Source of the DNA: an uncultured virus (IMG/VR IMGVR_UViG_3300017989_000061)
Lineage: Duplodnaviria; Heunggongvirae; Uroviricota; Caudoviricetes
IMG/VR virus record: IMGVR_UViG_3300017989_000061
Strand: one strand, 5' to 3'
DNA length: 64,000 bases
This document shows positions 1 through 55,285 of this stretch, piece after piece; the stretch's first letter is position 1; the number at the start of each line of letters is the position of its first letter. The notes under the pieces were generated by a model. That model had not been told where the DNA came from. It searched no databases and saw only the letters and a program-made list of their open reading frames with translations. Position numbers and translations under genes: made by a program.

Positions 1-647
1 CCAAAGATAAAGGTGTTGCTTGTGTGGATATTGGATTGAACAACCTATGTGCGATAACTTCCGATCAGACAACTCCCATACTGGTCAATGGTCGTATAAT
101 TAAGGCAATCAATCAACAATTCAACAAGTACAGGACTAAGAGAGAGTCTCGCAAACGCTATTTTAGGATTGAAAATTATTTTCATCATGTGAGTAAGTGG
201 TTGATCTCTTGGTGTCAAGAACATAAAATTGGCACGATCATCATTGGCAAGAATGATGGTTGGAAACAAAGAAGCAAGATGCGAAAAAAGAACAACCAGA
301 ACTTCCAATCTGTGCCATTCTTCAAGTTGATACAGAAGATCGAGTATAAGGCAATGCTGGCTGGCATCAAGGTTGTGTTCACTGAAGAAGCCTATACTAG
401 CAAAGCAAGTTTCTTGGATCGTGACACTATTCCTGTTTATGATAAAAAGAACAGTCTTAAGTTTAGCGGTTCGAGAGTGAAGCGTGGTTTGTATCGTTCC
501 AGTGATGGGACATTAGTGAATGCTGACTGTAATGGATCAGCGAATATTGGGAGAAAAGTAATCCAGAACTCTGAGTTTCTTGGACGACTGGATAGGAGCC
601 TTGCCGCAAGGCCAGTACGGATTAATCCATTGAATGTTTCTGCGTAG
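1..647 (+). CDS. tnpB: TnpB-family RNA-guided endonuclease, copy 1 (5' end outside window)
   Basis: RuvC-I VDIGLNNL, EEAYTSKASFLD, RuvC-III NADCNGSANI; near-identical to 10411..11571. Confidence 0.9.
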   Translation, partial: KDKGVACVDIGLNNLCAITSDQTTPILVNGRIIKAINQQFNKYRTKRESRKRYFRIENYFHHVSKWLISWCQEHKIGTIIIGKNDGWKQRSKMRKKNNQNFQSVPFFKLIQKIEYKAMLAGIKVVFTEEAYTSKASFLDRDTIPVYDKKNSLKFSGSRVKRGLYRSSDGTLVNADCNGSANIGRKVIQNSEFLGRLDRSLAARPVRINPLNVSA

Positions 648-730
648 AACGGCAGAGACAGGATTGATTTCGTCAAACTTAAATTTCCTTAGATTTTTAG
701 GAACGGTTTTAATGCTATACACACTGGAAG
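560..730 (+). ncRNA. Putative omega/reRNA scaffold plus guide of TnpB copy 1
   Basis: Similarity to copy 2 continues past the stop codon to ...TTTTAGGAACGGT (707) and then stops; 5' boundary is a guess. Confidence 0.5.
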
Positions 731-1131
731 TAGAATCGTATGGGGAATGGGAGTATGTTGATTCATATTTGACATTATCCGCAGCTATAGAGTTTGGCAA
801 ATCAGACTATTCTCATAATGCTTGGCGTATAGTTCGTGAAGGTTGTGTTGAACACGTTCATGATCCGATTACTGCTTTTATGGAAGAAAGTGAAGAGCAT
901 TTATATAATTGCAAATATGTAAGTGATTGGATTAGAGGGCAACAAGAGCTTCGGGAGTTCAGAGATCAGGAAAGAGAACGAGAAGAGCGTGAAAGGGAAG
1001 CGGCTCTTAATTGGTATCCATTTGAATTAGATGAAGAGAGAACGGGGTTTGAAAATTTTGCACCTGTTTTAGATAATTATTTCTTTGAGGACAAACCTGA
1101 AAAGATTGACTGGACTGTGGAGGGTTTTTAA
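712..1131 (+). CDS. Hypothetical protein with C-terminal DWTVEGF motif
   Basis: ORF 634..1131; ATG at 712 preferred because it lies downstream of the TnpB 3' scaffold. Confidence 0.75.
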   Translation: MLYTLEVESYGEWEYVDSYLTLSAAIEFGKSDYSHNAWRIVREGCVEHVHDPITAFMEESEEHLYNCKYVSDWIRGQQELREFRDQEREREEREREAALNWYPFELDEERTGFENFAPVLDNYFFEDKPEKIDWTVEGF

Positions 1132-1331
1132 TGACTGACAAAGAATTAAATATGCTTTGTGAAGAGCTAGGAAGCAGAAAAGGAATACGTGTTGTTGTTC
1201 AATGTAACACGGACAAAGAAGCGGGTGATCTCCTTCAAAAGTTGAAAGATTTCAATTGGCAAGCTATGCTTCAACAGTCGGCTTTTTGTGACTATGAAGT
1301 GGTTGTGGTGGAAAGAAATGAAAACTCTTGA
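1131..1331 (+). CDS. Hypothetical protein
   Basis: TAATG overlap with the previous gene. Confidence 0.65.
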   Translation: MTDKELNMLCEELGSRKGIRVVVQCNTDKEAGDLLQKLKDFNWQAMLQQSAFCDYEVVVVERNENS

Positions 1332-1530
1332 TCTTCATGGAAAACGTCATCATGAAGTAACTAGGCTTGTTGAAGATTTTATGCTTGAAAATGAATTGCC
1401 GGTAAGGATTGTTACCGGCAATTCATTTTTGATGAAAAAATTAGTTGAAGAATCTCTTCCTGATGATGTTATTTGGCAAAATGAAAGTGATTGGAATTTA
1501 GGCTCCATGATAGTTCTAATTAAGACTTGA
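1318..1530 (+). CDS. Stand-alone Smr-domain protein
   Basis: MKTLDLHG and IVTGNS Smr motifs. Confidence 0.75.
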   Translation: MKTLDLHGKRHHEVTRLVEDFMLENELPVRIVTGNSFLMKKLVEESLPDDVIWQNESDWNLGSMIVLIKT

Positions 1531-1593
1531 CACAGATTCAGTTTTTAGTCATAAATGTCATCGTTGACGTTAAGTCTTAAAAGGAATTTGGTC

Positions 1594-2184
1594 ATGCAAG
1601 AGATGTTCATATTTGGATCGTTTTGGTTTTGGACTATTGTCGCTGTTGAAACAGTATTGCTGTTCCTTTTCATTGAGAAAAAGAATGGCACCGGAGCGAC
1701 AATATCCATGCTTATTTTTGCTGCTATCATCCAGTTCTTTGGTGATGTTGATATTATAGGGTTTACTACTGAACACCCTGTTAGAGCAGCATTGGGCATT
1801 CTTGCTTATTTTGCACTAGGTACACTCACAGCCGTCGCTAAATGGCTTTTGTATGCTAAAGACCATATCGAACATGTGAATGAAGTTCGAGATGAATGGC
1901 TGAAATCTCAGGGTTATGGTTGGCCTCTTGTTAGTGATGATCAAAAAAGTCAGTGGAAATCTCATAAGCTAAACCACGGGCTGCAAAAGCCACTAATCCG
2001 ACAGCATAAATCTGACTTTATTCGTTGGATGACTTTTTGGTGGATTATACTTGTTTGGTCAATTTTCGCAGACGGCGTAAAACGTATCTGTAAATCGATT
2101 TACAAAAGAATCTCTAAGTTCTTGCAGAAGATGGTCGATGATATGTGGAGAAAAGCCGGGTATGATCCTGATGATGAAGATTAA
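1594..2184 (+). CDS. Hypothetical membrane protein
   Basis: Several hydrophobic segments; start uncertain (1555/1594/1603). Confidence 0.75.
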   Translation: MQEMFIFGSFWFWTIVAVETVLLFLFIEKKNGTGATISMLIFAAIIQFFGDVDIIGFTTEHPVRAALGILAYFALGTLTAVAKWLLYAKDHIEHVNEVRDEWLKSQGYGWPLVSDDQKSQWKSHKLNHGLQKPLIRQHKSDFIRWMTFWWIILVWSIFADGVKRICKSIYKRISKFLQKMVDDMWRKAGYDPDDED

Positions 2185-2190
2185 CTAGAA

Positions 2191-2288
2191 TAGGAGAGAG
2201 CCGCTCCCAAGGATAAGGGAGCGGGCCATGGATGGCGGTCATGGATGACACCCACTGGAGGTGGGGTGCCGCATGGAGGCGGCTTTTC
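2191..2288 (+). ncRNA. CsrB/RsmZ-like CsrA-binding small RNA (five GGA-loop hairpins)
   Basis: CCGCTCCC-AAGGATAA-GGGAGCGG, GCCA-TGGA-TGGC, GTCA-TGGA-TGAC, CCCAC-TGGAG-GTGGG, GCCGC-ATGGAG-GCGGC followed by TTTT; GC-rich island in AT-rich DNA. Confidence 0.75.
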
Positions 2289-2333
2289 ATTGGGAACTCA
2301 TATATAGCATGTTCCCAATTTGTAGGAGAAAGA

Positions 2334-2717
2334 ATGGAGGAATATACAATTGCGAGAAGGAACTCTCTCAGAGCCTCTGTTAAAAAAGCCATAGAAGAAT
2401 ATCATGAAGCTATGAATAGAAGGGATTGGCATCAATGCTTGTTGATGACTTGTCCCAGTAAGCTTCACAAAATCAATGAATATGACTTCCAGTCAGGGTT
2501 ATCCCTCTATATGGATTTCTACGGCTTCATTAAGCCTGATAACTTTCTTATTTCTTTGGTTTTGGGCAAAGAGCATCTTTTGTACAATCGAAAAGATTAT
2601 GCTCAAATTCTTTACAGTAGAATTACTGAAAAACGGATTATCAAAGTCAATGAAGCTTGGGTTTTGTGGGATGGAGAATGGAAGAGCACAATAACTCGTT
2701 TCCCCAAACCGAAGTAG
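2334..2717 (+). CDS. Hypothetical protein
   Basis: ATG 2334 with AGGAG SD; the longer start at 2232 would run through the sRNA. Confidence 0.7.
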   Translation: MEEYTIARRNSLRASVKKAIEEYHEAMNRRDWHQCLLMTCPSKLHKINEYDFQSGLSLYMDFYGFIKPDNFLISLVLGKEHLLYNRKDYAQILYSRITEKRIIKVNEAWVLWDGEWKSTITRFPKPK

Positions 2718-2899
2718 ATTTTGACAAAGATGCATATTTGGCCATTCTTGAAATGAATTGGTACATGAAGCATCACCCCGAGCAACTGAGCCATCTTTTC
2801 TTTGATGATGAAGAACATCATCTTTTTTGCGAAAATAACCGAACTAAACCTGATCTTCTGTGTCCATTGGACGTTGTTTGGAAAAAAGAGGGCTTTTGA
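2678..2899 (+). CDS. Small hypothetical protein with C-terminal VWKKEGF motif
   Basis: GGAG SD before ATG 2678; shares its C-terminal motif with 712..1131. Confidence 0.6.
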   Translation: MEEHNNSFPQTEVDFDKDAYLAILEMNWYMKHHPEQLSHLFFDDEEHHLFCENNRTKPDLLCPLDVVWKKEGF

Positions 2900-3016
2900 T
2901 TTTTTGGCAACTCATATATACTTGCGAGAGTAACAAGAAATGGCCCGAAACATCTTTCCAAGAGAAAGAGAGGAGTGTGGAATGGGTTTCACTTAGACTT
3001 TAAAGGAGGACCAATT

Positions 3017-3628
3017 ATGTCAATCATGACAAAACAAAGGTGTTTGGTGCTGAACAAGAGCTGGACACCAATTAAGACAATCCCATTGAGAAGAGCTGTT
3101 ATCATGCTTTTCTCAGAGCACAATGATGGAACGCCAAAAGCACGAGTCATTGAGCCAGAGAGCTACCAAGCTTTCACATGGGAAGATTGGTCCAAAATGA
3201 AACCGTTGGCCACAGATGAGGCGATTCAGGCTGCGAACATAAGGTTCAAAGTGCCTGAAATCATCTTGCTGTCTCGTTATAACAAGTTGCCAAAGCCGAA
3301 GGTTCACTTCAGCAGACGCAACCTTTACAAGCGAGACGAAATGACTTGTCAGTATTGTGGTAAGCAGCCGGGTTCAGCAGAGTTGAACATTGACCATGTT
3401 ATTCCACGTGCACAAGGTGGTCAGTCCAGTTGGGAAAACTGTGTTTTGAGCTGCATTCCATGTAACTCAAAAAAGGCTAACCGTCAGCCACATGAATGTG
3501 GAATGAAGCTTCTCAAGACACCTAAGAAGCCAAAAATGGACATGTTTAAGCTCGATGAACTAAGTGATATTCCAGATAGTTGGAACGCATTTATTTCGGA
3601 GGCTTATTGGAATACCGAGATGAAGTAG
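3017..3628 (+). CDS. HNH endonuclease (McrA-like)
   Basis: CLVLN, FSRRNLYKRD..CQYCG, IDHVIP..GG, W.N.V.SC..CN..K; AAGGAGG SD. Confidence 0.9.
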   Translation: MSIMTKQRCLVLNKSWTPIKTIPLRRAVIMLFSEHNDGTPKARVIEPESYQAFTWEDWSKMKPLATDEAIQAANIRFKVPEIILLSRYNKLPKPKVHFSRRNLYKRDEMTCQYCGKQPGSAELNIDHVIPRAQGGQSSWENCVLSCIPCNSKKANRQPHECGMKLLKTPKKPKMDMFKLDELSDIPDSWNAFISEAYWNTEMK

Positions 3629-3653
3629 AAACATCTTTGATGTTTCAAGATTC

Positions 3654-3694
3654 AAGACCTGTAGGGGACAACCTCTACAGGTCTTTTCTTTTTT
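3654..3694 (+). terminator. Rho-independent terminator
   Basis: AAGACCTGTAGGGG/CCTCTACAGGTCTT stem followed by a T-tract. Confidence 0.85.
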
Positions 3695-3850
3695 GGCTAA
3701 TTGCTGTTGACTCTTGTTTAAAGTTCGTTAAACTGCTTTGAGTCTTTGGGCTGACAAAAGTGGCGTGGGATCACTTGTTGGGTCTTAGATTAACTGCTTA
3801 AAAAAACTTTATTTATGCCACGATGGATGGTTTAAAGAAAGGGAATTCTA

Positions 3851-6130
3851 ATGTCTGATATTACACGCACTTTTACAGATGCTCAACTTGGTCTTCGAGA
3901 GCGACATCGTCGAACAAAGCGAAATCCAATAAATCCTGTTTTGGCTTTTTTTCGAGAACAAGCAGCTAATGCTTCTTCTTGGGGAGCAAAAAACTTTGGA
4001 ATTGTAAGCGCCAAATACAAACGACATTCTTACTTAATTTGTTACCATGATGGAGAAGGGTTTCCTACATCGCAAACAGTGTTCGATTGTTTACATCCTT
4101 CATCTGCTTTTGGCAACAAAGGGTTGATGGGCAATGGAGGTAAGCTGTCTGGAATTTTGCTTGTCAATAAAAATGATAATTATCACATGTGTGTTTATAG
4201 TGCGTGTTTAGATGGCACTCATTGTGCTTTTGATTTGAAAATCAAAGGCCGTAAACCAGTTGTTAAAAATGCAGATAATGTTATCCATGAGTTTTTAACT
4301 CCAGTGCTGAAGGGAGCTAAATTCAAACCATCTGTTATTTACATGCATCGTTTCGATGTTGTTGGTGATGAAAAAGCCCTTCAGACCATTTCAACAATGA
4401 ATAGTTATGGTTTGTTTGCTCCTTCAACTTTATCTAAAGGCATGAAGATTTATTTTGGAAACGGGGTGTTGGTTGATCCCGGTTTCAATTCCATCGATGT
4501 TGCTACAAAGGGAAATAAAAACAAAATATACTCTGATTTGGGTGCCTCTTATAGTTATCAAGACGGAGCAGGTGGAAAATACACGCACGTTGAAGTTGCA
4601 CCTTATTCAGATATAAGAAACAAGTTTTGTCCTGAAAATTACAGGTTTAAATATGGTTTTTCAGGCTGTGATGTTTCTTTGAACGGAGAAAAATTCACTT
4701 TAGAGGGTAATCTTTTTGTAGATGTCTATCCGGGATTGTGCAAAAAACGTCATGACAGTCAGGGGTTGATCCCTTTACAAGGTGCTGGGAAGGCAAGTCA
4801 TCAATATCAGCCAATTGAGGATTCTACATATTTGATTTTGAATTGTTTTGAGGACGAAGCATCAGTTCGTTTGTCTCAAGATCCAGTATTTGTTGGCAAC
4901 ATGAATACTCCATTGGCAACAGAGATGCAATTGCCAATAATTGAATCAATTCCTAAGATCACAAATGACTTGAATGATTTTTCTGGGAAAGGTTTTTTGG
5001 GTTATGACCTTTCATTGAAAGACAAAGAAAAACAAACGAAACTTTATCGCTCTCCATTTATTGTTCTTAAATTTGAAGTAACTAATGTTGTTGCTGACTT
5101 AAGCCGCTCTGAACCTGAACGACGAAATGCTTTGGGCGGAATAGATGAATTGTTCACATCAATTGATAGATCAAAAAGCAGGAAAATCATCAAGGGAATT
5201 GGAATTCATGTTGCTGAAAAACACAATCTTAATTCACTTAAAAAATGTTTGCGAGAAGTGTACCCACTTACTGTTGACAATTTAGCTCCTTTGGATTTTG
5301 AATCTAAAACAGTGGGTTGTAAAGTGGAGTTTATTCCTGAAAAGGGGCCTCGAAAAATTGTAGAGCCTAGTCAAACCTATACTGGAGCTTTGAAGTATGT
5401 CGATAGCGGACTTGATGTTGATGGAAGTGATCAAATTGAGGCACTTAGTGAGGGGTTTGTGTTAAGTTTTATGGGCGATGGTTGCTGGGCTTTGCGTATT
5501 TTGCCTTTGTCTCTTCGATTAAATGATGGTAGCAAACGAGAGGTCTTGGAAGAAGAATGGTTAAAAGCTAATAGGTATGACAGAATTCCACGTCAGCGAA
5601 ATCAGATTAGCATCAATGGTGCCATTTATGAATTTGAACCTAGATTTACTTTACCGAAAGAAAATAATCGAACATACAAGGGTCGTGAAGCTGTAATTAA
5701 AGGTGGGGTTGTTGCAGGTGATGACGAAAAATTCACAATGCATTTCTATAAACCACTGGGAGAAAATCCTGATCGATATATCGAATATCATCCAAAGCAA
5801 GGTGTTTTCTTGAATCAAGATAATCAGACGATTCAAGTTCATTTTCGAAACATTCATGAATCGAAGGCGTGGCGAAAAACATTGTGGGAAGAAATTCGCA
5901 CAGAGTGCCATAAGGCATGGAATACAATTCAACACTTAACTCACAAGTTCTCTGAACGAGGAGATAAAGAGTTGGCTGATAAGTGGGGGAATGATGAAGA
6001 ACATGGTGCTCAAATGTTTCTGATGAACAGAATGATTGAACATGTGTTTAAGAATAAAAGAGCTAAAAATAAAGAAAAGGAGATTCTTGTGGCTATAGCC
6101 CGATATGAGGATGCCCCTGAATTGGTTTAA
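3851..6130 (+). CDS. Large hypothetical protein, possible divergent N-terminal GHKL ATPase
   Basis: 759-aa ORF; REQAANA, HDGEGF and GLMGNGGK resemble Bergerat-fold N, G1 and G2 boxes. Confidence 0.55.
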   Translation: MSDITRTFTDAQLGLRERHRRTKRNPINPVLAFFREQAANASSWGAKNFGIVSAKYKRHSYLICYHDGEGFPTSQTVFDCLHPSSAFGNKGLMGNGGKLSGILLVNKNDNYHMCVYSACLDGTHCAFDLKIKGRKPVVKNADNVIHEFLTPVLKGAKFKPSVIYMHRFDVVGDEKALQTISTMNSYGLFAPSTLSKGMKIYFGNGVLVDPGFNSIDVATKGNKNKIYSDLGASYSYQDGAGGKYTHVEVAPYSDIRNKFCPENYRFKYGFSGCDVSLNGEKFTLEGNLFVDVYPGLCKKRHDSQGLIPLQGAGKASHQYQPIEDSTYLILNCFEDEASVRLSQDPVFVGNMNTPLATEMQLPIIESIPKITNDLNDFSGKGFLGYDLSLKDKEKQTKLYRSPFIVLKFEVTNVVADLSRSEPERRNALGGIDELFTSIDRSKSRKIIKGIGIHVAEKHNLNSLKKCLREVYPLTVDNLAPLDFESKTVGCKVEFIPEKGPRKIVEPSQTYTGALKYVDSGLDVDGSDQIEALSEGFVLSFMGDGCWALRILPLSLRLNDGSKREVLEEEWLKANRYDRIPRQRNQISINGAIYEFEPRFTLPKENNRTYKGREAVIKGGVVAGDDEKFTMHFYKPLGENPDRYIEYHPKQGVFLNQDNQTIQVHFRNIHESKAWRKTLWEEIRTECHKAWNTIQHLTHKFSERGDKELADKWGNDEEHGAQMFLMNRMIEHVFKNKRAKNKEKEILVAIARYEDAPELV

Positions 6131-6136
6131 TAAATA

Positions 6137-6712
6137 TCATTTGTTGCAAACATAAATCTGTCGAGAACCCGCTTCTGGCCCTTCAAGGGCACTTGGGATC
6201 ACATTTACTTCAAATCCTAAGTCTTCTAACAAATTTTCTACGGGCACTTGAAGGTGCTTGAGGTGGGGAGTTTCAATGATCAATTTTTCTTTTGTATGTT
6301 CGGAAAGTTTTTCAATCACAGCCTGAGCATGTCCTTTGAGGTGATGAAGAACATTCAGAATAATCACATAGTCGTAAGTTTCAGGCAGTTCATAGTCGAT
6401 GATGCTTTCCTGCAAAAACACAACTTTGCTCTCAAGCACCTCTTTGAACAATTCTGCACGTTTGATTCTTTGAGGCTTTGTTTCAAGCCCAACTACATGT
6501 GTAGCGCCCAATTTTTCAGCTTCGAAACACAAATATCCATAGGCTGTGCCAATATCCAAAACGCTTTTACCATCAATTCGTTCCGGGAAAATCAAGTCTC
6601 TTGTGGCTGATCGATCCAATCCTTTCGTGTGCATCCCGTGTGGAAGTTCGATTCGACCATATCTTTCAAATTTAAACTGATCAACTATTTTCTTGATATC
6701 TTTTTTTGTCAT
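6137..6712 (-). CDS. Class I SAM-dependent methyltransferase
   Basis: VLDIGTAYG motif I; YDYVIILNVLHH. Confidence 0.85.
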   Translation of the reverse strand: MTKKDIKKIVDQFKFERYGRIELPHGMHTKGLDRSATRDLIFPERIDGKSVLDIGTAYGYLCFEAEKLGATHVVGLETKPQRIKRAELFKEVLESKVVFLQESIIDYELPETYDYVIILNVLHHLKGHAQAVIEKLSEHTKEKLIIETPHLKHLQVPVENLLEDLGFEVNVIPSALEGPEAGSRQIYVCNK

Positions 6713-7244
6713 ATTCAACTCCCAGAAACTGTATCATTTCTTCTTTGGTGATAGCTGGTAAACGATCCTTTTCTGCGTCAAGTAAGATGTAAGGGATTTT
6801 AATGTCTTCCAAGTTTGTAACGCCTCGGTAGTACAGACTTGCCCACTGTTCATCAGTGAAAGTGCGATTGACGGTTACTGGTCTGGCAACATCTTTCCCT
6901 TTTGCCCACAGTTCATGTCGGTGATTTGCTCTTTTCTTTCTGGTTTCTTTTGATGCTACCAAAACAATGGCCTGTTTGTTGATTGGGGAATTCAGGTAAA
7001 ACTCAAAAGAGATGTTGTAGGAAAGACAACAGTGCAAATAAGCGGTGTGGTTGATTACATCGTGTCCATGGTCAACCACATTTTTGTAGTATTCCCCAGC
7101 AGGGTAGACCGGTGGCTTATCGAGAAGACCTGTGATTTCAGCCAATCTTGTGTTTTGTTGAATAAACGTTGTCTTCCCGATGCAGCTTGGAGCAATGATG
7201 AGCCACATGGTTTCATTCATGGTTGTATCTAGTGTTTTTGCCAA
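6681..7244 (-). CDS. P-loop NTPase/kinase-like protein
   Basis: IIAPSCIGKTT Walker A-like motif; start uncertain. Confidence 0.6.
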   Translation of the reverse strand: MAKTLDTTMNETMWLIIAPSCIGKTTFIQQNTRLAEITGLLDKPPVYPAGEYYKNVVDHGHDVINHTAYLHCCLSYNISFEFYLNSPINKQAIVLVASKETRKKRANHRHELWAKGKDVARPVTVNRTFTDEQWASLYYRGVTNLEDIKIPYILLDAEKDRLPAITKEEMIQFLGVEYDKKRYQENS

Positions 7245-7252
7245 ATTGTTTC

Positions 7253-7281
7253 TTTACGATTGTTTTCAACTGCCGTACAAT
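7253..7281 (+). promoter_or_regulatory. Sigma70-like promoter (TTTACG-17-TACAAT)
   Basis: Member of a repeated family with TGnCG before the -10 box. Confidence 0.6.
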
Positions 7282-7317
7282 GCAGTCAGATACAATTCTG
7301 TCCTCTTTGTTCAACGG

Positions 7318-7992
7318 ATGAAATTCATGTACACCGCTCCTGACATTCAGAAAAAAGTTGTTAATCATCTTTCTCGCATGAAAGAAGGCGAGTTGGTAAC
7401 AGTTAAAGCCTGTTGTGAGGAATACAAAGATTTCTCTGAAAAGGAAAGAGAACGAATCAAAGGGACCATAACGGGCGTTCTCAGTACGCTTACCAATGGT
7501 GGCTTTCTGATCCCTGAAAAGCCCGGAAGGAGGTTTAACCGGATCATCTCCAAAGAATTTGTTCTTTTGATAAAAGCGAACAAAGTGTTTTCTTTCTTGG
7601 AGTTGTGGAGTAAGTTGGGTAGCAAGAAGGTTAAGCCTTCTTTCAAGACAAACAAATCCAATACTTTGCAGTCTTATTACCGATTCTATGAAATCGAATA
7701 CCGAGAATGGCTTCAAAGGGTTAACATTGATCAAGATGCTTTGACGAAGAACAGGAGCAATTTGCTGCCGCCAAAAATCAAAGATAAATCAATTCAGGAT
7801 TTGTCAAAAACCGTTGAGGAAGCTCAAAGCACTGAAGAGGTTCAAGAACTTCCAGAAAGTGTTGGAGATATTACAGGGGTGAAAGATTCCTTGACTCAAA
7901 AGCAAGCATCTGTCTTTGATGTCTTCACGGTCGAAGAGCTGAAAGACCTACCAGTGGAACAAAGAGCAAAGATGATTGAGATTCTTGGTTAA
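7318..7992 (+). CDS. Hypothetical protein (possible winged-helix DNA-binding N-terminus)
   Basis: ORF 7180..7992; start placed after the promoter. Confidence 0.65.
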   Translation: MKFMYTAPDIQKKVVNHLSRMKEGELVTVKACCEEYKDFSEKERERIKGTITGVLSTLTNGGFLIPEKPGRRFNRIISKEFVLLIKANKVFSFLELWSKLGSKKVKPSFKTNKSNTLQSYYRFYEIEYREWLQRVNIDQDALTKNRSNLLPPKIKDKSIQDLSKTVEEAQSTEEVQELPESVGDITGVKDSLTQKQASVFDVFTVEELKDLPVEQRAKMIEILG

Positions 7993-8786
7993 AAAGTCTT
8001 GCTGTTTTTACGAAGCATGTACTTTGCCATTGGCGATCTATGAGGGGCATCCTGTGAAGGGACGCCTTTTGTTTTCAAAGAGTTCTTCTCGTTTCGGATG
8101 TGAGCTTTAAGTTGTCCTCTGACTTTATCCGTTAATGTCGGAACTTGAGCGAGCTTTTCTAGTTCGCCAATCAATTCCAATGTTGCTTTTTCAGAGTGCT
8201 GGGGAGCTACATCGACGTATTTTCTTTTAGCAATAATTGCTTTTGCTGCTTGTTGAGAGATCTCTTTTGATTTAGCTTCACTTGGCTCAACAGTCTGAAT
8301 ATCAGGAGCTGCTTTTGTTTTGCCCATTCTTGATATGACTTGTCCTTTTGAGTTCAAGTCGTCTACGTCATAAACGTCTTCGACCCCTTGCTGACGTGTG
8401 ACATCATAGTCTTCGTCTCCAAGGTTTCCATCTTCTGCGCTTTGTGGCTTGCCAACCCAATGGCCTTTGCCAATTTTTGGATCAAGGTGAGTTCCAATAT
8501 CCTGAATGTCACCTCTTTTTACACCCAGTCTTTTTCCTGAGTGCTTCAAGTGATCAGCTCTACGTGATCTTTCCATTCTTTCAGCCGTACCACGAATAAC
8601 TTTGCTTTTTCGTTTCGGCGTAACTCCAACGTATTCTTCTCCATGATCACCACTGTCATAACCCATTTGGTCAGCAGCAAATTCTGCTGAAGCATTAGCT
8701 CGTGCTGCCGCAGCTTCTGCATCTTTTCGTGTATCTCGCCAGTCATCATTTTCGACAAGTTGAAGCATTTCATAGAATGTAAGCAT
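7989..8786 (-). CDS. Hydrophilic hypothetical protein, possible virion internal protein
   Basis: N-terminus MLTFYEMLQLVE resembles the T4 capsid-targeting sequence; upstream CTAAATA motif. Confidence 0.65.
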   Translation of the reverse strand: MLTFYEMLQLVENDDWRDTRKDAEAAAARANASAEFAADQMGYDSGDHGEEYVGVTPKRKSKVIRGTAERMERSRRADHLKHSGKRLGVKRGDIQDIGTHLDPKIGKGHWVGKPQSAEDGNLGDEDYDVTRQQGVEDVYDVDDLNSKGQVISRMGKTKAAPDIQTVEPSEAKSKEISQQAAKAIIAKRKYVDVAPQHSEKATLELIGELEKLAQVPTLTDKVRGQLKAHIRNEKNSLKTKGVPSQDAPHRSPMAKYMLRKNSKTF

Positions 8787-8876: not shown

Positions 8877-9649
8877 ATGTCTAAGAAAAACAAACAACGG
8901 AGGTATCTTTAGTGATGCCGTGACTGACGACTCACGGAGGCGTCTTTGAGAACGCTACCGAACTGACGCTGGAAGTTCAAAATGGAGAAGGTGGAGATGA
9001 CTCAAAAATCTTCGTTCATGAACTTTTCTCGGCTTATGTGAGATACTCCGAATCTCTTAATCTCGAAGTAGAGATCATTAATTCTACTGAAGGTAACGTG
9101 AAAGCCATTGTCTCTGGTAAAGGTGCGGGTAAAGCCTTTGCAAACGAACCGGGGAAGCACGTATGCCAACGGATACCACCAACTGAACAGAAGGGTCGAA
9201 AACATACTTCGACTGTTTCTGTTTCCGTGTTGCCACTTGAAAATAATACTGAAATCCAACTTTTGGATGAAGATGTTGTTGTTGAAAAGTGCAATTTGGG
9301 AGGTCCGGGGGGTCAAAAACGCAATAAAACGATGTGCGATGTTCGTTTGACTCACAAACCCACTGGATTACAAGCAGTGGTTAGTGGCAGGAGTTATCAT
9401 AAAAACCTCGCAGAAGCTCTTAAAATACTTTCAAATAGAGTAAATGACAAATACCTCGGAGAAAAGCGACAAGCCCGCTCAGAGGCTCGTAAGGGCCAAA
9501 TGGGAGGCGGTTCGAGATCGGATAAAATTCGGACATATAATTTCTTAAATTCTCGTGTTTCTGATCATCGATTGGGGACGAAAACCGGTAATATCAAAGG
9601 AGTTATGCGTGGAAGGTTGGATTTGATTTTCAAAAAACCTTCAAAATAA
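8877..9649 (+). CDS. Class I peptide chain release factor, RF1-type (PxT), lacking domain 1; predicted to need two +1 programmed frameshifts (~256 aa)
   Basis: GEGGDD..F..LF.AY, QRIPPTEQKGRKHTS, GGPGGQ, RTYNF motifs; AAGGAG SD + ATG 8877; shift sites CTT-TAG 8907-8912 and CTT-TGA 8944-8949. Confidence 0.9.
8899..8950 (+). promoter_or_regulatory. Two tandem prfB-type +1 frameshift cassettes (UAG, then UGA)
   Basis: GGAGG TAT CTT TAG and GGAGG CGT CTT TGA: internal SD, 3-nt spacer, CUU-U slippery site, stop; each is in the frame reached by the previous step. Confidence 0.85.
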
Positions 9650-10410: not shown

Positions 10411-11571
10411 ATGTTATTGGTAGAACGACACCACATCCAAGGAAATCACGAAATTGTAAAGCTGTGCGAAACAAGCAAAGAGCTTTACAATAAATGCAAT
10501 TACTATATGCGAAAAGCGTGGTTCGGGGATGAGCAATTGCCTGACATTACAATTCTTGTTCAACTTGTAAAACATGAGTCAAGTTTTAAAAATTTACACA
10601 ACACCAAAACGGCAAAACAAACAGTTAGAAAGTGTTTGATAGACTGGACTAACTTCAAAAAAGCAATTAAAACTTGGAAGAAAGACAAAAGTAAGTTTCT
10701 GAAAATGCCAAAACCTCCTAAGTACAAGAAGAAGATGGCACAAGTGATCTTCTACAAAGAAACAATCAAAGGTGGTCAAAGTAAAAATAAACGAAATATA
10801 ATCATTCCAACTAATGGTTGTTTTGGTATTAAAAGTGATCGAAACTATAAACAGGTAGTTGTTACACCAAAACGTTTTGGGTTCATTGTAGATGTTCAAT
10901 ATGAACAAACAATTCCAAATAAAACTAAAGATAAAGGTGTTGCTTGTGTGGATATTGGATTGAACAACTTATGTGCGATAACTTCCGATCAGACAACTCC
11001 CATACTGATTAACGGTCGTATAGTCAAGACAATCAACCAGAAATTCAATAAATATAGAACCAGACGTGAGAGTCAAAAACGTTATTTTAGGATCGAAAAT
11101 TACTTTCATCATGTAAGTAAATGGTTGATCCTTTGGTGTCAAGAACACAAGATTGGCACGATTATCATTGGTAAAAATGATGGCTGGAAACAAAGGCAAA
11201 AACACGGTAAACGTAATAACCAAAACTTTCAAAGTGTTCCTTTTTCCAAATTGATTCAAAAGATTGAGTACAAGGCGATGTTGGTGGGCATCAAGGTTGT
11301 ATTCACTGAGGAAGCTTATACAAGTAAAGCGAGTTTTTTGGATCGTGATGCAATTCCTGCTTACTCAAAAGATAATGATCTTGAGTTTAGTGGTTCGAGA
11401 GTGAAACGTGGTTTGTATTGTTCTAGTGATGGGGCATTAGTGAATGCTGACTGTAATGGATCAGCGAATATTGGGAGAAAAGTAATCCAGAACTCTGAGT
11501 TTCTTGGACGACTGGATAGGAGCCTTGCCGCAAGGCCAGTGCGGATCAATCCATTAGAAATTTTTGCGTAA
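10411..11571 (+). CDS. tnpB: TnpB-family RNA-guided endonuclease, copy 2 (no adjacent transposase)
   Basis: SKELYN helix, VDIGLNNL, EEAYTSK, NADCNG; Zn-finger cysteines absent. Confidence 0.9.
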   Translation: MLLVERHHIQGNHEIVKLCETSKELYNKCNYYMRKAWFGDEQLPDITILVQLVKHESSFKNLHNTKTAKQTVRKCLIDWTNFKKAIKTWKKDKSKFLKMPKPPKYKKKMAQVIFYKETIKGGQSKNKRNIIIPTNGCFGIKSDRNYKQVVVTPKRFGFIVDVQYEQTIPNKTKDKGVACVDIGLNNLCAITSDQTTPILINGRIVKTINQKFNKYRTRRESQKRYFRIENYFHHVSKWLILWCQEHKIGTIIIGKNDGWKQRQKHGKRNNQNFQSVPFSKLIQKIEYKAMLVGIKVVFTEEAYTSKASFLDRDAIPAYSKDNDLEFSGSRVKRGLYCSSDGALVNADCNGSANIGRKVIQNSEFLGRLDRSLAARPVRINPLEIFA

Positions 11572-31316: not shown

Positions 31317-31734
31317 TCACCCCTGCTCTTCAATATATCGTTTAATGGTCTCAGTGCTAACATCCCCTGTAGAGCAGGCGAAATACCCATCAGACCAGAA
31401 TGTATGTTCTTTCCAAAAATGACCAGATAAGTAAGCTCGATGTAGTTCCCAAATGCGATTAGTGGACATGCTCTTCAACCGATTGACAATGCTACTCACC
31501 TTCACCGTAGGGGGATAATCAATCAGCAAGTGGATATGGTCTCCATCCTCAGACTGCATGGTCTCAATCGTGAAATCTGACTCGTTTGTCACATCAAACA
31601 ATATCTGCTTCATGTCCTCGTCCACCTGAACCACAGACAACAACCGCTTCCGATATTTGCATACTAAAATGATGTGAACCTTCAACAAAAACTTGGAATG
31701 TGAAGAACTTTTGTATTTTTTTCTTTTTTCCCAT
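31317..31734 (-). CDS. tnpA: Y1 (HUH) transposase, apparently frameshifted just after its ATG
   Basis: HIILVCKYR, DHIH, LKSMS, FWSDGYF, YIEEQ; ATG 31734 is one base out of frame across A-runs. Confidence 0.85.
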
Positions 31735-31769
31735 GAGAGAATGATCCTTGCCTTACTACATATACTGTA

Positions 31770-32996
31770 GTGAAAAAGAGCATAGAACACCAGATTGATT
31801 ATACCTACAAGTTCCGCTTGTATCCCACGAAACAACAGGAGCAGAAGTTAGCCCAACACTTCGGTTGCGTTCGCTGGACGTATAATCATTTCTTGGATCG
31901 CCGAGTAAAGTTCTACCTCAATGCCAAAGAAAAGCAACTCGATAAGAAACACCTGAATTACTACGATGATGCTCGTGAAATCACAGAACTTAAACAAGAG
32001 TTCCCATGGTTGAAGGATGTAAATTCCCAATCACTGCAACATTCCCTGAAAAACTTGGAAGCAGGGTTTAACCGTTTTTACAAAAAGTTGGCTAAGTTCC
32101 CAAGATTTAAGAACAAAAGAGCGAAGCAAAGCTTCCGAGTTCCACAACATATCAAAGTTAATGACAATAAGTTGTATATCGTTAAGTTCAGGGAAGGCAT
32201 TAAGGTGAAATTACATCGCCCGATTGAAGGTGATATTCGTCATGCCACCATCAGCAGAAACAAGGCAGGACAATACTTTGTCTGTCTGGGAGTTCAGCGT
32301 CATGTTAAGAAATTACCCAAGAACAAAAAGGCGGTAGGGGTTGATTTGGGAGTGAAGGACTTAGCCACCTGTAGTGACGGCAAGGTGTTTCCCAATATCA
32401 GACCTTACAGGAATAGAGAAAAGAAACGGCGAGTGTTAGCCAAAGCTTTGTCTCGAAAACAAAAGGGAAGCAACGGAAGAGAGAAAGCTCGCCGAGCATT
32501 AGCCAAATTTGACCTAAGAATTGCAAACATTCGTAATGACCATTTGCATAAGATTAGTCATCAACTCGTTAGCGAGAACCAAACTATCGTGATGGAAGAC
32601 TTGAATGTGAAGGGAATGTTGGCAAATCGCAGGTTGTCAAAGTCAGTGTGGGATTGTTCGTTGTATGAACTGGCTCGCCAGATTGCTTACAAAGCGAAGT
32701 GGTATGGTCGTGAGTTCATCCAAGTTAGCCGATGGTTTCCGAGTAGTAAGACTTGTGGAAGTTGCGGTCACGTGAATGATGCTCTCACATTGGCAGATAG
32801 AGAATGGGCTTGTCCGAGATGTGAGAAGGTGTTGGAGCGTGATTTCAATGCTTCGCAGAATATTTTGCGACAAGGACTTAATCAAGAAAATAGAACCGTA
32901 GGAACTACGGAGATAGCTGATCGTCATGGTGTAAGACCTGCATTGAGTGGGCAACTGTCTGGGTCAGAAGCCCCGCCGTCTTTAGCGGCGGGGTAG
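31770..32996 (+). CDS. tnpB: TnpB, canonical RuvC D/E/D with Zn finger
   Basis: YKFRLYPT, GVDLGV, VMEDL, CGSC/CPRC, RDFNAS. Confidence 0.95.
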   Translation: MKKSIEHQIDYTYKFRLYPTKQQEQKLAQHFGCVRWTYNHFLDRRVKFYLNAKEKQLDKKHLNYYDDAREITELKQEFPWLKDVNSQSLQHSLKNLEAGFNRFYKKLAKFPRFKNKRAKQSFRVPQHIKVNDNKLYIVKFREGIKVKLHRPIEGDIRHATISRNKAGQYFVCLGVQRHVKKLPKNKKAVGVDLGVKDLATCSDGKVFPNIRPYRNREKKRRVLAKALSRKQKGSNGREKARRALAKFDLRIANIRNDHLHKISHQLVSENQTIVMEDLNVKGMLANRRLSKSVWDCSLYELARQIAYKAKWYGREFIQVSRWFPSSKTCGSCGHVNDALTLADREWACPRCEKVLERDFNASQNILRQGLNQENRTVGTTEIADRHGVRPALSGQLSGSEAPPSLAAG

Positions 32997-47613: not shown

Positions 47614-48654
47614 ATGGATTTTATTCAGCATCCCATGAAACTGTTCGGTTTGAAGGGCAGTGAGGAATACGCCAAAGAAGTTGCTGATGCTTTGAGTATC
47701 AAATTGTCAACTCATGAAGAGCGTGTTTTTGATGATGGGGAACCGTATTTGAAATCTTCTGATGGCAAACACGGAAATGTTCGTGGGCACAATTGTTTCG
47801 TAATTCAAAGTTTGTACGGCGACGACGAACTGACTGTCTCTGAAAGGTTCACGAGACTTCTCATCTTCATTGGTTCTTTGAAACAGGCAAGTGCCAATGA
47901 AGTGATTCCTGTTATTCCTCATTTAGGTTGGGCACGTCAGGATCGCAAGACAGCAAGTCGTGCTCCTGTCACTACCAAGATCATTGCAAAGGCATTACAG
48001 GACGCTGGCGGCGACAGGTTTCTGTTTTTTGACGTTCACAACAAATCAGCAATTGAAAATGCCTTTGATGTTCCAATTGACAATCTCGAAGCAAAACCAC
48101 TTCATGCTGACTGGTGTGCGAAGAAATTGGACGGAGCTGAAAAAATTGTTGTCATGTCACCCGATGCAGGTGGTTTGGGGCGAGCTGAAAGGTTCCGTAC
48201 AGCGTTGCACAGGCGATTGCCGAAATCCAACATTGGATTGGCTGTTTTTGACAAATTGCGTGATTCCACAACGGGAGAAGCACGTAGTGCAACAGGTGGG
48301 AAGTCCGTAGGGAACATTATCGGTGACGTACAGGATGCTCTTGTTATCATGCTTGATGACATGATTTCAACGTGTGGCACGATGATCAAGGCATGTCGAG
48401 CAGTGCCGGAATTTGGTGGGAAGGTGTATGCCATCTGCGTTACCCATGGCTTGTTTGTGGGAAAAGCCAATGAAAGATTGACAGAATTGGCTGACGATAC
48501 AAAAATTGTAATCGCCGACACAATACCCCCGTTCCGAGTCAATAAAGAGAATCGGAAGAGAGTACGTGTCGTCAAAACCACCGATATGGTTGCCGAAGCC
48601 ATATCAAAAATTAACAGTGGCACAGGCTCGATTTCTGAGTTGATTAACGCTTAA
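47614..48654 (+). CDS. prs: Ribose-phosphate pyrophosphokinase
   Basis: FDDGE, ARQDRK, DVH, SPDAGG..RA, DDMISTCGT, THGLF. Confidence 0.95.
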   Translation: MDFIQHPMKLFGLKGSEEYAKEVADALSIKLSTHEERVFDDGEPYLKSSDGKHGNVRGHNCFVIQSLYGDDELTVSERFTRLLIFIGSLKQASANEVIPVIPHLGWARQDRKTASRAPVTTKIIAKALQDAGGDRFLFFDVHNKSAIENAFDVPIDNLEAKPLHADWCAKKLDGAEKIVVMSPDAGGLGRAERFRTALHRRLPKSNIGLAVFDKLRDSTTGEARSATGGKSVGNIIGDVQDALVIMLDDMISTCGTMIKACRAVPEFGGKVYAICVTHGLFVGKANERLTELADDTKIVIADTIPPFRVNKENRKRVRVVKTTDMVAEAISKINSGTGSISELINA

Positions 48655-51033: not shown

Positions 51034-51431
51034 TTTCAAATACAATACCGAAGATTAGCTGCATTGTTTTGTCAGATAAAACACCTGATCAATCTTTTGT
51101 CGATGGTTTTTTGAATCAAAATTATCCCAACAAAGAGTTGGTGGCGTTGATTGAAGATTTGTCACTCATTGATGACAATTTTCTTTTTGTTCAAAGGCCG
51201 AGCAATTTAAGTGTTAACGAACAAAAAGATTTGTTGATTGAATTGACAACAGGAGATTTGATTTGTTGGTGGGAGTCTCAAGATGATGAATATTGGCTAA
51301 CTCGAAAATACAAACATTGGTGTGAAAAACATGAAGATGACGATGTGTTTTTCTCTAAAGTCAAATTCCACAAAGCCGGGAACATGTTGTATTCCGGCAC
51401 GGAGACAGAAATAGATCATGACTACTTCTAA
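51030..51431 (+). CDS. Short degenerate GT2-like protein
   Basis: PKISC, QNYPNKE, TGDLIC resemble the preceding gene; DxD motif lost. Confidence 0.6.
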   Translation: MISNTIPKISCIVLSDKTPDQSFVDGFLNQNYPNKELVALIEDLSLIDDNFLFVQRPSNLSVNEQKDLLIELTTGDLICWWESQDDEYWLTRKYKHWCEKHEDDDVFFSKVKFHKAGNMLYSGTETEIDHDYF

Positions 51432-52200
51432 AAGAGATAAGGTTATTGATTACATCGCATTAGTGACTAAGCCATTGGTTTGGTATTCAGTCATCATGCT
51501 TTTCTTGGAAATACACGCCGGTGCTGAAACAAGTCATGAATCACACTGGTTTTTTCTTTGGTCAGAGCGATTTGTCGCAGGTGTAATGACTATTGAATAT
51601 GTTTTACGATGGAAGAAAAGCGGGAAATTTCTTGAATACCCGCTTTCTGCTTTTGGAATCATTGATCTGATATCTATTGTGCCATTCTGGGCAGGATTCT
51701 TTCTTGCATCACAAAGCTCTTTGCACTTAGTGCGTACACTCAGATGTCTGAGAATGCTCAAGTTCTTCCGTTACAGCCGATCACTTCAATTGATGGCTCT
51801 CGGGTTTTACAGATCGTGGTTTAATTTAAAGCCTCTGTTGTTCACTACTTTTATTGTCGTGATGTTTACCATGTTTGCTCTTTATGAAGTGGAAGGACCA
51901 CATCAGGAAGAGTTTCGTGATTTATTCACTGTGCTTTACTTCTTGGAAACAACAGCAACGACTGTTGGGTATGGAGATCATTCTCCAGCTACAGTTGGTG
52001 GTCGTTTGATTGTGATGGGCTTTATGGTTGTTGGCTTGGCTATTTTTATGGCTTGTTTTTCTGCCATCACAAATGCTTTCGATAAGACAATAGAAGAGGA
52101 AATCGACCCAAACATTGATCCACTTGAAGAATTCAAAAAGGTGAGAGAACAGCGTAAGGGAAAAGGAAAGTGGTTTAGTTGGAGGAACAATGAAGTTTGA
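51418..52200 (+). CDS. Voltage-gated-type potassium channel
   Basis: TTVGYGD selectivity filter; S4-like RTLRCLRMLKFFR; several TM segments. Confidence 0.9.
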   Translation: MTTSKRDKVIDYIALVTKPLVWYSVIMLFLEIHAGAETSHESHWFFLWSERFVAGVMTIEYVLRWKKSGKFLEYPLSAFGIIDLISIVPFWAGFFLASQSSLHLVRTLRCLRMLKFFRYSRSLQLMALGFYRSWFNLKPLLFTTFIVVMFTMFALYEVEGPHQEEFRDLFTVLYFLETTATTVGYGDHSPATVGGRLIVMGFMVVGLAIFMACFSAITNAFDKTIEEEIDPNIDPLEEFKKVREQRKGKGKWFSWRNNEV

Positions 52201-53182
52201 ACAGAGATATCCCGATGGAGGTTCACATGATTTTGGTCATACGGTAATGGTCAGAGGCGATTTGGGAGCTTGTGATCATTGCCAAAGTTTTACACGTTGG
52301 AAAGATAAAGTCCTCAACAAATTAGTTTGTAGTGAAGAGTGCGGGACAGCTTTGTGGAAAGATAATGCTGCGGAATCGCCTGAAATAACCAGACAAAACA
52401 CTTATGCTCTGTACGGACGCCAAATTAGAGAAGAATTAGACCTGACAGCAGAGTGGATGGATAATAATGTTGCAACTAAAGACATCATTGTTGTTGTCAA
52501 AGATCAACTGGAATATGTTCAAAATTGTTTGAAGTCCATCAAAGAACACACTGTTGAGTATCGTTTGTTTGTTTGGGACAACGGTTCAGACACCCCTACA
52601 CGTGAGTATCTTGAACAATTGAGTATCAGTGGAGAAATCGAACTGTTACGAAGTGAGAAAAATATTGGCTTCATAAAGCCGAACAATGAATTGGCTGGTT
52701 GGGGAGATGGAGATTATATCATTCTTCTCAACAGCGACACTGTTGTGTTTGAAGGTTGGGATTCGGCAATGATTGCTTTCCTTCAAACACACGAAGACGT
52801 AGGAGTTGTGGGCCAGCTTGGCGGAATGTTGAATGAAACAGGATTGGGAGTAGATTCTGGTTTTGGTTATGATGTTGATTACATCATGGGTTGGTGTCTT
52901 TGTCTCAGCAGAGACACTTACGAAGAGCATGGTCTATTCAATAAGCAATTGACTTTTGCATATTGTGAGGATGCTGATTTGAGTCTGAGGCTCAAAGAAG
53001 CTGGATTGAAAGTGTATGCCCTGCACGCACCTTTGGTTCATCATTATGGCAACAAGACAATTAAGCAGGTTTCACAGGAAGGTGAGATCGATGTCAAGAA
53101 GACGTTTGATCTCAACCATCAATACATGCAGGTCAGATGGAAAGATTATCTCGAAAAAGGAAGAGTGAGACATGGAAGTTAA
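52190..53182 (+). CDS. Glycosyltransferase GT2 with N-terminal Cys motif
   Basis: CDHC...CSEEC; WDNGSD, NIGF, LLNSD, YCEDAD. Confidence 0.9.
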   Translation: MKFEQRYPDGGSHDFGHTVMVRGDLGACDHCQSFTRWKDKVLNKLVCSEECGTALWKDNAAESPEITRQNTYALYGRQIREELDLTAEWMDNNVATKDIIVVVKDQLEYVQNCLKSIKEHTVEYRLFVWDNGSDTPTREYLEQLSISGEIELLRSEKNIGFIKPNNELAGWGDGDYIILLNSDTVVFEGWDSAMIAFLQTHEDVGVVGQLGGMLNETGLGVDSGFGYDVDYIMGWCLCLSRDTYEEHGLFNKQLTFAYCEDADLSLRLKEAGLKVYALHAPLVHHYGNKTIKQVSQEGEIDVKKTFDLNHQYMQVRWKDYLEKGRVRHGS

Positions 53183-53924
53183 AAAGAACATTTTTGATTA
53201 CCTTACCATCCCTCTTGGGAAGTGGTTTAAAGTTCCGGTTTATTTGCATTGGAGCTGGACCATCTTCTTTGGGTTGTTGTTGTTCGTGGATTTGAAAAGT
53301 AGTTCCAGTAATTCAGTCATTTTGTTGGGCGTGTTCTTAATTGTCATTCTTCATGAATTTGGCCATTGTATAGCTGCTCAATACTATCACTGGAAAGTTC
53401 ATCATATTTACCTTTACCCCATTGGGGGAGCAGCTTACATGGAATTTCAACCAGTTCCAAAAGAGGAGTTGGTTGTTTCTGCGGCGGGTCCATTGGTTAA
53501 CGTGTTGTTGATTCCATTTTTCTCTTTTTTAACGATACCATTTATACCAGAACCCATTTGGGTCAAAATTGCAGCAGTAAATATCGTTATCTTGTTCTTT
53601 AATCTTCTTCCAATATTTCCCATGGATGGAGGTAGATTGTTGAGGGCAACATTGCAGTTTAAGTTGCCTCGTTTGAAAGCCACTCTGTACGCAACACGAA
53701 TTGGTCAGGTTTGCTGTGTGTTGCTTGCCGGTTTTGGTTTCATGATGGGCCATGTGATGCTCATTGCGATTTCAATTTTCATTGCATTAGCTGGACAAAG
53801 TGAACTGGAAGCTGTGAAAAAGGCCGAAGAGAAGAACGAAAATGTCAATCTTCTATCGAATTCCGTAGATACACTGGAGAGCCTCCAAGCTAAAATCGAT
53901 AAACACAACAAAAAATTTGATTAA
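53172..53924 (+). CDS. Site-2 protease (peptidase M50)
   Basis: HEFGH, AAGP, FNLLPIFPMDGGR. Confidence 0.95.
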   Translation: MEVKKNIFDYLTIPLGKWFKVPVYLHWSWTIFFGLLLFVDLKSSSSNSVILLGVFLIVILHEFGHCIAAQYYHWKVHHIYLYPIGGAAYMEFQPVPKEELVVSAAGPLVNVLLIPFFSFLTIPFIPEPIWVKIAAVNIVILFFNLLPIFPMDGGRLLRATLQFKLPRLKATLYATRIGQVCCVLLAGFGFMMGHVMLIAISIFIALAGQSELEAVKKAEEKNENVNLLSNSVDTLESLQAKIDKHNKKFD

Positions 53925-53943
53925 TTCGGATTTTAGAATCTGC

Positions 53944-55269: not shown

Positions 55270-55285
55270 ACTGTCAATTGACGCT

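Follow-up and report, generated by a model that had tools for sequence, protein, structure and literature searches.

We examined a 64,000-nucleotide (nt) stretch of DNA from an uncultured virus of the Caudoviricetes (IMG/VR record IMGVR_UViG_3300017989_000061), hereafter the window, and in it a short intergenic element at positions 2191 to 2288. An earlier note on this DNA had described the element as five consecutive hairpins with GGA in their loops, similar to the CsrB/RsmZ RNAs that titrate the RNA-binding protein CsrA. The array lies on the plus strand between two plus-strand genes, the first of which encodes a predicted membrane protein (gene X), and the window also carries a csrA gene. 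The features concerned, in order of position, are as follows.

1594 to 2184, + strand: gene X, predicted membrane protein of 196 amino acids (aa), or 209 aa from an alternative start at 1555
2193 to 2195, + strand: leader GGA in AUAGGAGAG, between the gene X stop and hairpin 1, probability of being unpaired 0.53 to 0.73
2201 to 2224, + strand: hairpin 1, 8-bp stem CCGCUCCC / GGGAGCGG, loop AAGGAUAA, which is ANGGAX plus two bases
2225 to 2236, + strand: hairpin 2, GCCA / UGGA / UGGC
2238 to 2249, + strand: hairpin 3, GUCA / UGGA / UGAC
2251 to 2265, + strand: hairpin 4, CCCAC / UGGAG / GUGGG
2268 to 2283, with its U-tract to 2287, + strand: hairpin 5, GCCGC / AUGGAG / GCGGC, an exact ANGGAX hexaloop, terminator-like
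2289 to 2319, to 2323 with UUGU, + strand: hairpin with a 9-bp stem and a 13-nt loop in the minimum free energy (MFE) fold, aligned with the RsmZ model's terminator; probably a back-up terminator, keeping the array apart from the downstream gene
2324 to 2717, + strand: downstream gene, Shine-Dalgarno sequence GGAG at 2325 to 2328 within GUAGGAGAAAGA, ATG at 2334, 127 aa
48651 to 48842, - strand: phage csrA, 63 aa, TTG start preceded by AAAGGAGG

The five hairpins, and the UUUU directly 3' of hairpin 5 (2284 to 2287), were recovered just as the earlier note had placed them, in the MFE fold and in the centroid fold alike. Their loop GGAs were unpaired with a probability of 0.92 to 1.00 in the partition function, and successive GGAs were spaced 19, 13, 14, and 18 nt apart. 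The G+C content of the array was 0.67, compared to 0.38 to 0.40 in the flanks. A high-affinity site for CsrA/RsmE is ANGGAX atop a stem (PMC4005645). The hairpins of the array fit this motif: A-N-GGA can be read in four of the five loops, and in hairpin 5 the stem carries a hexaloop that matches ANGGAX exactly. Several GGAs exposed in hairpin loops or single strands, ideally as ANGGAX on a stem, characterize the functional class of Csr/Rsm decoy RNAs, and a loop GGA was found in all five hairpins.

The element is phage-borne, as the earlier note had supposed. A second IMG/VR genome (G001; 234,631 nt, CheckV completeness of 44%) overlaps positions 51302 to 64000 of the window with 5 mismatches in 12,699 nt and is therefore the same genome. 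G001 encodes a major head protein, head protease, portal, large terminase, and baseplate wedge, and these structural genes, together with the overlap, show that the window comes from a tailed jumbo phage whose genome spans at least 286 kb. Metagenomes of marine sediment and of seawater are the labels on the DNA runs containing this stretch, and no RNA run was listed for window positions 1400 to 3000.

Dinucleotide shuffles of the 98-nt region (n = 5000) had a mean of 0.61 GGA-loop hairpins, with five or more in 1 shuffle and four or more in 10. Across 285,932 nt of phage sequence (window plus G001, both strands), the hairpin scanner returned the array as the sole cluster of five GGA-loop hairpins; the runner-up clusters had three hairpins each and lay inside coding sequence. 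A separate scan of A-N-GGA density again gave the array as the single outlier.

A related phage genome, G005 (238,888 nt), whose CsrA is 67% identical to that of the window phage, carries a second array. G005 and the window genome share 14 blastn blocks at 64 to 74% identity, and 13 of them are colinear in inverted order, from window position 3093 (G005 87038) to position 76765 of the joined genome (G005 13812). With G+C contents of 51% in G005 and ∼40% in the window, the two genomes have diverged considerably. The G005 array lies at the position matching that of the window array, directly 3' of the stop of a 212-aa open reading frame (ORF) that is 42% identical to gene X over its full length. 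It comprises eight hairpins, six of which have GGA in the loop (UGGA, AGGAC, AGGA, CGGA, AGGA, and CGGA), with U6 after the last of them (GGGCCA-CGGA-UGGCCC). Of the loop GGAs, five were unpaired at a probability of at least 0.99, and the first at ∼0.5. None of 5000 shuffles reached the scanner count of seven (one of the seven is an alternative pairing within a longer stem), and no other cluster of this kind was found in the 239 kb, where the next best had four hairpins. The gene downstream of the G005 array is different from that in the window and lies ∼130 nt further on, with its Shine-Dalgarno sequence ∼128 nt past U6, and a sigma-70-like site stands ∼30 nt upstream of the gene X homologue. 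The 5' parts of the two arrays have unequal numbers of hairpins, indicating that whole hairpins have been gained and lost. Drift of the primary sequence has gone far enough for R1, a covariance model based on the window copy, to miss the G005 array.

The two copies could be aligned without gaps by MAFFT (window 2225 to 2288 against the last four G005 hairpins), and this brought hairpins 2, 4, and 5 into register with no structure imposed. All 14 base pairs of these three hairpins were standard in both phages (28 of 28 cells); 5 had both bases replaced, no pair had a single-sided change, and none was broken. When the 3' partners were slid by one to three columns, 18 to 61% of the cells paired, with at most two double-changed pairs. 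Column shuffles equaled the observed values in 16 of 500 cases, although this control is weak with two rows. The stem of hairpin 2 is identical in G005, where its loop is AGGA, and double changes affected two of the five pairs in hairpin 4 and three of the five in hairpin 5, whose counterpart is the one followed by U6. The G005 counterpart of hairpin 3, aligned separately, is CUCA-CGGA-UGAG, in which the outer pair has switched from G-C to C-G as a sixth compensatory change. Covariation among related phages had been proposed in the earlier note as a check on the structure, and this relative provided it: over the four hairpins, 6 of 18 pairs had changed, all of them compensated, and none was lost.

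Within the aligned loops (AGGA, CGGA, AGGAU, and CGGA in G005), GGA was invariant in four of four. The base before it had changed from U to A, C, A, and C, the base after it had changed from G to U twice, and the A two bases upstream was kept in three of the four. GGAG was not kept, so the loop pattern fits ANGGAX and not a mimic of the Shine-Dalgarno sequence. The compensatory stem changes and the invariant GGA in a syntenic relative thus support the view that the design of the array is under selection.

Further variation came from a comparison of window positions 1400 to 3000 with the contigs of four DNA runs. Strain X6/X8 was 98.7% identical, with 21 single-nucleotide polymorphisms (SNPs) in 1601 nt. 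The only SNP within the array, G to U at 2260, falls in the loop of hairpin 4 and leaves GGA intact. In the sediment run X5, a diverged 963-nt contig matched the window at 2223 to 2253 only (31 nt, one mismatch). Upstream of this match, the hairpin CCUCCCCC-AAGGAC-GGGGGAGG corresponds to hairpin 1 with two double-changed pairs (G-C to U-A and U-A to C-G); the contig also has hairpin 2 and further downstream hairpins, including GGGCCA-GGGA-UGGCCC. Its read depth is similar to that of the phage's own contigs, and this array may be a paralogue in an unseen part of the window genome or may come from a close relative.

Both array-bearing phages encode CsrA. The csrA gene that the earlier note had read in the window held up: its product scored 56 bits with Pfam CsrA (PF02599; cutoff, 27) and could be aligned along its length with solved CsrA structures, the best being the FliW-partnered proteins of Geobacillus and Bacillus (5dmb and 1t3o). 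It keeps the MLVLSRK N terminus and the Arg of (H/L)R(K/E)E, with LREEL aligning to HRKEI, and L4, R6, K7, and R47 are invariant across 39 members of its subfamily. This subfamily (MLVLSRKRDEKILL...IELTVVRIDANKVRLGI) is tightly conserved, with 354 proteins at an E value of ≤1e-5 among 442 candidates, and many of its members are on contigs of 100 to 693 kb. The nearest named record is the uncultured phage LR756511.1 (595 kb), with a large terminase that is 52.9% identical and a CsrA that is 63.5% identical. The window csrA is convergent with a phosphoribosyl pyrophosphate (PRPP) synthetase gene (47614 to 48654, + strand), a pairing that is kept in LR756511.1 (L190, 2986 to 4248), and the two genes are conserved together in this group of phages. 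The CsrA antagonist protein FliW was found in none of five related phage records. In a survey of 2517 phage genomes, csrA was reported in 30 (PMC7366521), and a survey of phage RsmA has suggested repression of CRISPR-Cas as a role (PMC8450108).

The array begins 7 to 17 nt downstream of the gene X stop codon (2182 to 2184). Stop codon, array (2201 to 2283), and U-tract follow one another on the sense strand, which is the layout expected of an RNA borne in a 3' untranslated region (3'UTR), and the same layout is seen in G005. Gene X itself matched no Pfam or PHROG family. Its own family is large (2714 representative clusters at an E value of ≤1e-3), and one homologue, P0123, is 52% identical. 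Among 22 records, gene X was detected in two, G005 and LR756511.1; in the latter a single long plain hairpin comes after it, and no GGA array. At two loci with distant homologues of gene X (L276, 2063 to 2137; L277, 2046 to 2121), a tRNA gene comes directly after it, within a tRNA cluster, and occupies the slot held by the GGA array in the window and G005. The array therefore looks like the 3'UTR of gene X rather than a free-standing small RNA (sRNA) gene, and like an elaborated terminator region of gene X in one sub-lineage of phages that already had csrA.

No function was assigned to the downstream gene (2334 to 2717), which is absent from the conserved unit, as G005 has another gene there. 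The earlier note had named translation of the array as the N terminus of ORF 2232 to 2717 as a result that would speak against an RNA element. This is unlikely: we rejected ATG 2232 as a start because a terminator hairpin and a strong Shine-Dalgarno sequence with ATG 2334 intervene, and the corresponding G005 gene is a different one.

We consider it somewhat probable that the array serves as a decoy for CsrA. Most simply, promoter, gene X, array, and terminator would make up one unit. The gene X transcript would then finish in the array, which would act as its 3'UTR or be processed into a separate small RNA, and either hairpin 5 or the back-up terminator would mark the end of the RNA. The array would offer five, perhaps six, putative high-affinity CsrA sites (ANGGAX on a stem) 13 to 19 nt apart, on which several CsrA dimers could dock side by side, as on RsmZ. 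Given five or six sites at this spacing, a multi-dimer decoy fits better than a control site for a single mRNA. From the sequence, we infer that the array is transcribed, binds CsrA, and acts in trans. The target titrated during infection would be a CsrA-family protein, which may be the phage CsrA, the host CsrA, or both, and such titration could set the timing with which ribosome-binding sites containing GGA are repressed or released.

In this design the array resembles RsmZ, RsmY, and RsmX of Pseudomonas (RF00166, RF00195, and RF02144; clan CL00106), which are of similar size (∼100 to 140 nt) and likewise string together short hairpins with ANGGAX loops; they finish in a Rho-independent terminator, and the array in a terminator-like hairpin with a U-tract. 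The 8-nt loop of hairpin 1, ANGGAX plus two bases, is like that of RsmZ stem-loop 1 (PMC4005645). Unlike the Pseudomonas RNAs, the array has no GacA box and no above-chance promoter, sits in a 3'UTR, and is phage-borne, and no sequence homology between them was detectable. In its placement it is closer to RsmW of Pseudomonas aeruginosa, an RsmA-binding RNA that originates from the 3' end of an mRNA (3'UTR of PA4570) (PMC4950607; bioRxiv 10.64898/2026.09.03.749296). RsmW is chromosomal and of a different lineage, and the likeness is one of placement. A host mRNA that titrates CsrA is also known in flaA of Campylobacter, together with FliW (PMC4894983). Titrators of the flaA type differ from the array in that their sites are in 5' or coding regions of host flagellin mRNAs and in having FliW as a partner. 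The enterobacterial RNAs CsrB, CsrC, and RsmB are multi-site GGA decoys for CsrA as well, and the phage element has five to six sites. CsrB is ∼350 nt long, with roughly 20 sites.

Several results weigh against a decoy. No Rfam family reached its gathering score in the 64-kb window. In a permissive search, PrrB_RsmZ (RF00166) gave the best match in 1900 to 2600, on the + strand and over model positions 1 to 133, at 21.8 bits (E = 0.0075 for a 701-nt search) against a gathering score of 44. The array is thus not a member of this family, and the same is true for clan CL00106. The G005 copy gave a partial match of 16.8 bits to CsrB (RF00018), for which the gathering score is 71, so the agreement with CsrB/Rsm covariance models that the earlier note had looked to did not materialize. 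Weak as they are, these two matches are to the expected kind of RNA and on the expected strand. A subthreshold RsmZ score is not diagnostic, because terminators in LR756511.1 score alike: the RsmZ model had five full-length matches there (369669 to 369805, 449120 to 449247, 196467 to 196595, 575869 to 576020, and 342489 to 342646) at about 13 to 23 bits, mostly strong terminators at gene ends, with no GGA array. The highest RF00166 score in G001 was 12.1 bits and fell within coding sequence.

A free-standing sRNA gene is likewise unsupported. Upstream of the array there was no promoter above chance (5 sites compared to 5.1 expected), with one sigma-70-like match of 9/12 at 2138 to 2166. The GacA/UvrY box is TGTAAGN6CTTACA, and no site like it was found at 1900 to 2200; the window as a whole had 28 matches with up to three mismatches, against 27.65 expected. 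The comparison with CsrB/RsmZ in the earlier note is therefore valid for architecture only: the hairpin chain and the ANGGAX fit (PMC4005645) stood, and the Rfam thresholds, GacA box, and promoter did not.

The distribution of the array points the same way. With the full hairpin scanner, no array was found in LR756511.1, G004 (459 kb), or G003 (177 kb), all of which bear csrA, and nothing was found in 16 further CsrA-bearing records, for which the checks were by model and pattern only. Phage CsrA clearly works without the array in most of the group. In addition, the covariation draws on two full sequences and one fragment, and the loop sequences GGAG and AGGA are also the core of the Shine-Dalgarno sequence, a motif present upstream of 23 of the 81 ORF starts in the window compared to 8.5% of random sites.

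Other searches returned no further homologue of the array. R1 found none in the window plus G001, in G002, in LR756511.1, or in 19 CsrA-bearing viral records. Among 21 related records, the loose pattern CANGGANG..CANGGANG matched mostly acidic coding repeats and one true array, that of G005; matches to GCCANGGATGGC in G004, G006, and G020 were isolated and not arrays. In viral contigs, the exact 24-mer of window 2226 to 2249 had no match, the pattern CATGGATG..CATGGATG..TGGAG had 53 loci, all coding (protease genes and acidic repeats), and a pattern of hairpins 1 and 2 with N at the covarying sites had none. The hairpin-1/2 pattern gave three matches in genome contigs, which were coding and attributed to chance. 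Single-protein searches with the flanking genes found no relatives in viral contigs, and megablast of window 1 to 8000 against phages found no match. In metagenome contigs, AAGGA..CATGGATG..CATGGATG gave at least 117 loci, mostly simple repeats and none an R1 homologue. The metagenome pattern scan also showed unrelated arrays of GGA-loop hairpins in L107 (∼3001 to 3040, - strand), L140 (∼1250 to 1286, - strand), L106, L093, and L116, examples of which are UGCAUGGAUGCA and CCACAUGGAUGUGG followed by GGAGG-rich hairpins; these may be Csr-type RNAs.

The alternative that fares best is a cis-acting, CsrA-responsive 3'UTR, in which CsrA would alter the fate of the gene X mRNA through protection from 3' exonucleases or RNase E or through termination and read-through, with titration as a by-product. 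We regard this as unlikely overall. In its favor, the array accompanies gene X in either phage but has different genes downstream of it, it starts within 17 nt of the stop with no above-chance promoter before it, and the G005 unit (sigma-70-like site, gene, array, and terminator) looks monocistronic. The same spot in relatives is taken by a plain hairpin or by tRNA genes, which suggests a general slot for 3' ends or RNA genes. Against it, to our knowledge, cis-acting sites use far fewer than five or six tandem high-affinity sites, and decoy RNAs are the better match. The cis and trans readings are not mutually exclusive, and nothing in the analysis separates them.

We find it improbable that the array is a terminator or RNA stability module unrelated to CsrA, its GGA loops being mimics of the Shine-Dalgarno sequence that pair with 16S rRNA or sites for another phage RNA-binding protein. 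Such a module would account for the last hairpin and U-tract, which are terminator-like in both phages, for the Shine-Dalgarno core in the loops, and for the absence of the array from most CsrA-bearing relatives. A terminator, however, requires one hairpin where the array has five or six. Loop conservation also follows the CsrA/RsmE consensus, with GGA fixed, N and X free, and GGAG lost in G005, and both phages that have the array encode CsrA.

We consider it highly unlikely that the array is the 5' leader of the 2334 to 2717 gene, with CsrA bridging an upstream hairpin and the Shine-Dalgarno sequence to repress translation. The Shine-Dalgarno GGAG at 2325 is 50 nt from the GGA of hairpin 5, a distance within the range reported for dual-site CsrA binding. 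Two terminator-like hairpins nevertheless stand between the array and the gene, and G005 has another downstream gene, whose Shine-Dalgarno sequence is far more distant.

The array might also be read from the minus strand, as an RNA whose C/U-rich UCC loops pair with Shine-Dalgarno sequences, or as a DNA element such as a protein-binding cruciform or recombination site. The fold-energy z score was -2.9 on the + strand (2 of 200 shuffles equally stable) and -4.8 on the - strand (0 of 200), and the stems are wholly Watson-Crick, with no G-U pair to mark the strand. Fold energy alone cannot choose the strand, because the + strand has only a modest z score and is surpassed by the - strand. These readings are nonetheless highly unlikely, since both flanking genes are on the + strand, a terminator-like hairpin with its U-tract occurs in the window phage and G005 on the + strand only, GGA stands on the sense strand of gene X in both array-bearing phages, the Rfam matches to Csr/Rsm models are confined to the + strand, and the array is single copy. 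A dispersed REP-like (repetitive extragenic palindromic) or multi-copy 3'UTR repeat was excluded, as R1 found the array alone in 298,631 nt and the scanner found one cluster each in the 286 kb of the window phage and the 239 kb of G005.

Elsewhere in the window, ∼30 kb at 11600 to 42100 are dense in sulfotransferases, a sulfatase, family-2 glycosyltransferases, S-adenosylmethionine (SAM) methyltransferases, and pyruvyl- and acetyl-transferase-like genes, and two radical-SAM/SPASM proteins are encoded at 56782 to 59695. This is an unusually large glycan modification repertoire for a phage. Three TnpB/IS605-type genes lie at 3 to 647 (cut by the edge), 10411 to 11571, and 31317 to 32996, with one complete IS200/IS605 pair that includes a Y1 transposase, and a further transposase set is present in G001. 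The gene at 9038 to 9649 (+ strand) encodes a 203-aa protein with the RF-1 domain and the C-terminal part of PCRF only, which resembles a truncated or divergent class I release factor. A voltage-gated-type ion channel, a ClpX-like ATPase, and a pyrimidine dimer DNA glycosylase are encoded at 51418 to 52200, 54007 to 55269, and 62925 to 63518, respectively.

CsrA controls hundreds of bacterial mRNAs, among them those for motility, carbon storage, and biofilm formation and, in Serratia, CRISPR-Cas genes (PMC8450108). Genes for CsrA have been described in phages, but not the means by which a phage controls the protein. In their available parts, the papers on phage CsrA and RsmA describe the protein only and no phage-borne GGA decoy RNA (PMC7366521 and PMC8450108), and full-text searches of the literature returned no report of a phage-encoded decoy RNA of the Csr type. 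If the array acts as proposed, it would be the first viral protein-sponge RNA of this type, and the Csr decoy design would have arisen independently on a terminator hairpin. For the detection of such RNAs, the comparison with G005 suggests that hairpins are gained, lost, and re-stemmed while ANGGAX is retained, and this is why covariance models miss them. Conversely, the terminators of LR756511.1 caution against calling subthreshold RsmZ matches decoy RNAs. With five sites in ∼90 nt, the array is also a compact natural part that could be useful for titrating CsrA in synthetic circuits.

For the phages themselves, we tentatively put forward a wider proposal, one that we find plausible without leaning toward it: that this is a marine jumbo phage lineage with a self-contained Csr module, in which its own CsrA and a multi-site decoy RNA in the 3' end of a membrane protein mRNA are used as a timer. 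The decoy would buffer phage or host CsrA until a shift in decoy level switched the translation of GGA-bearing host and phage mRNAs. A phage-borne decoy would thus place both halves of the switch in the phage and would represent a new route of host takeover at the level of translation.

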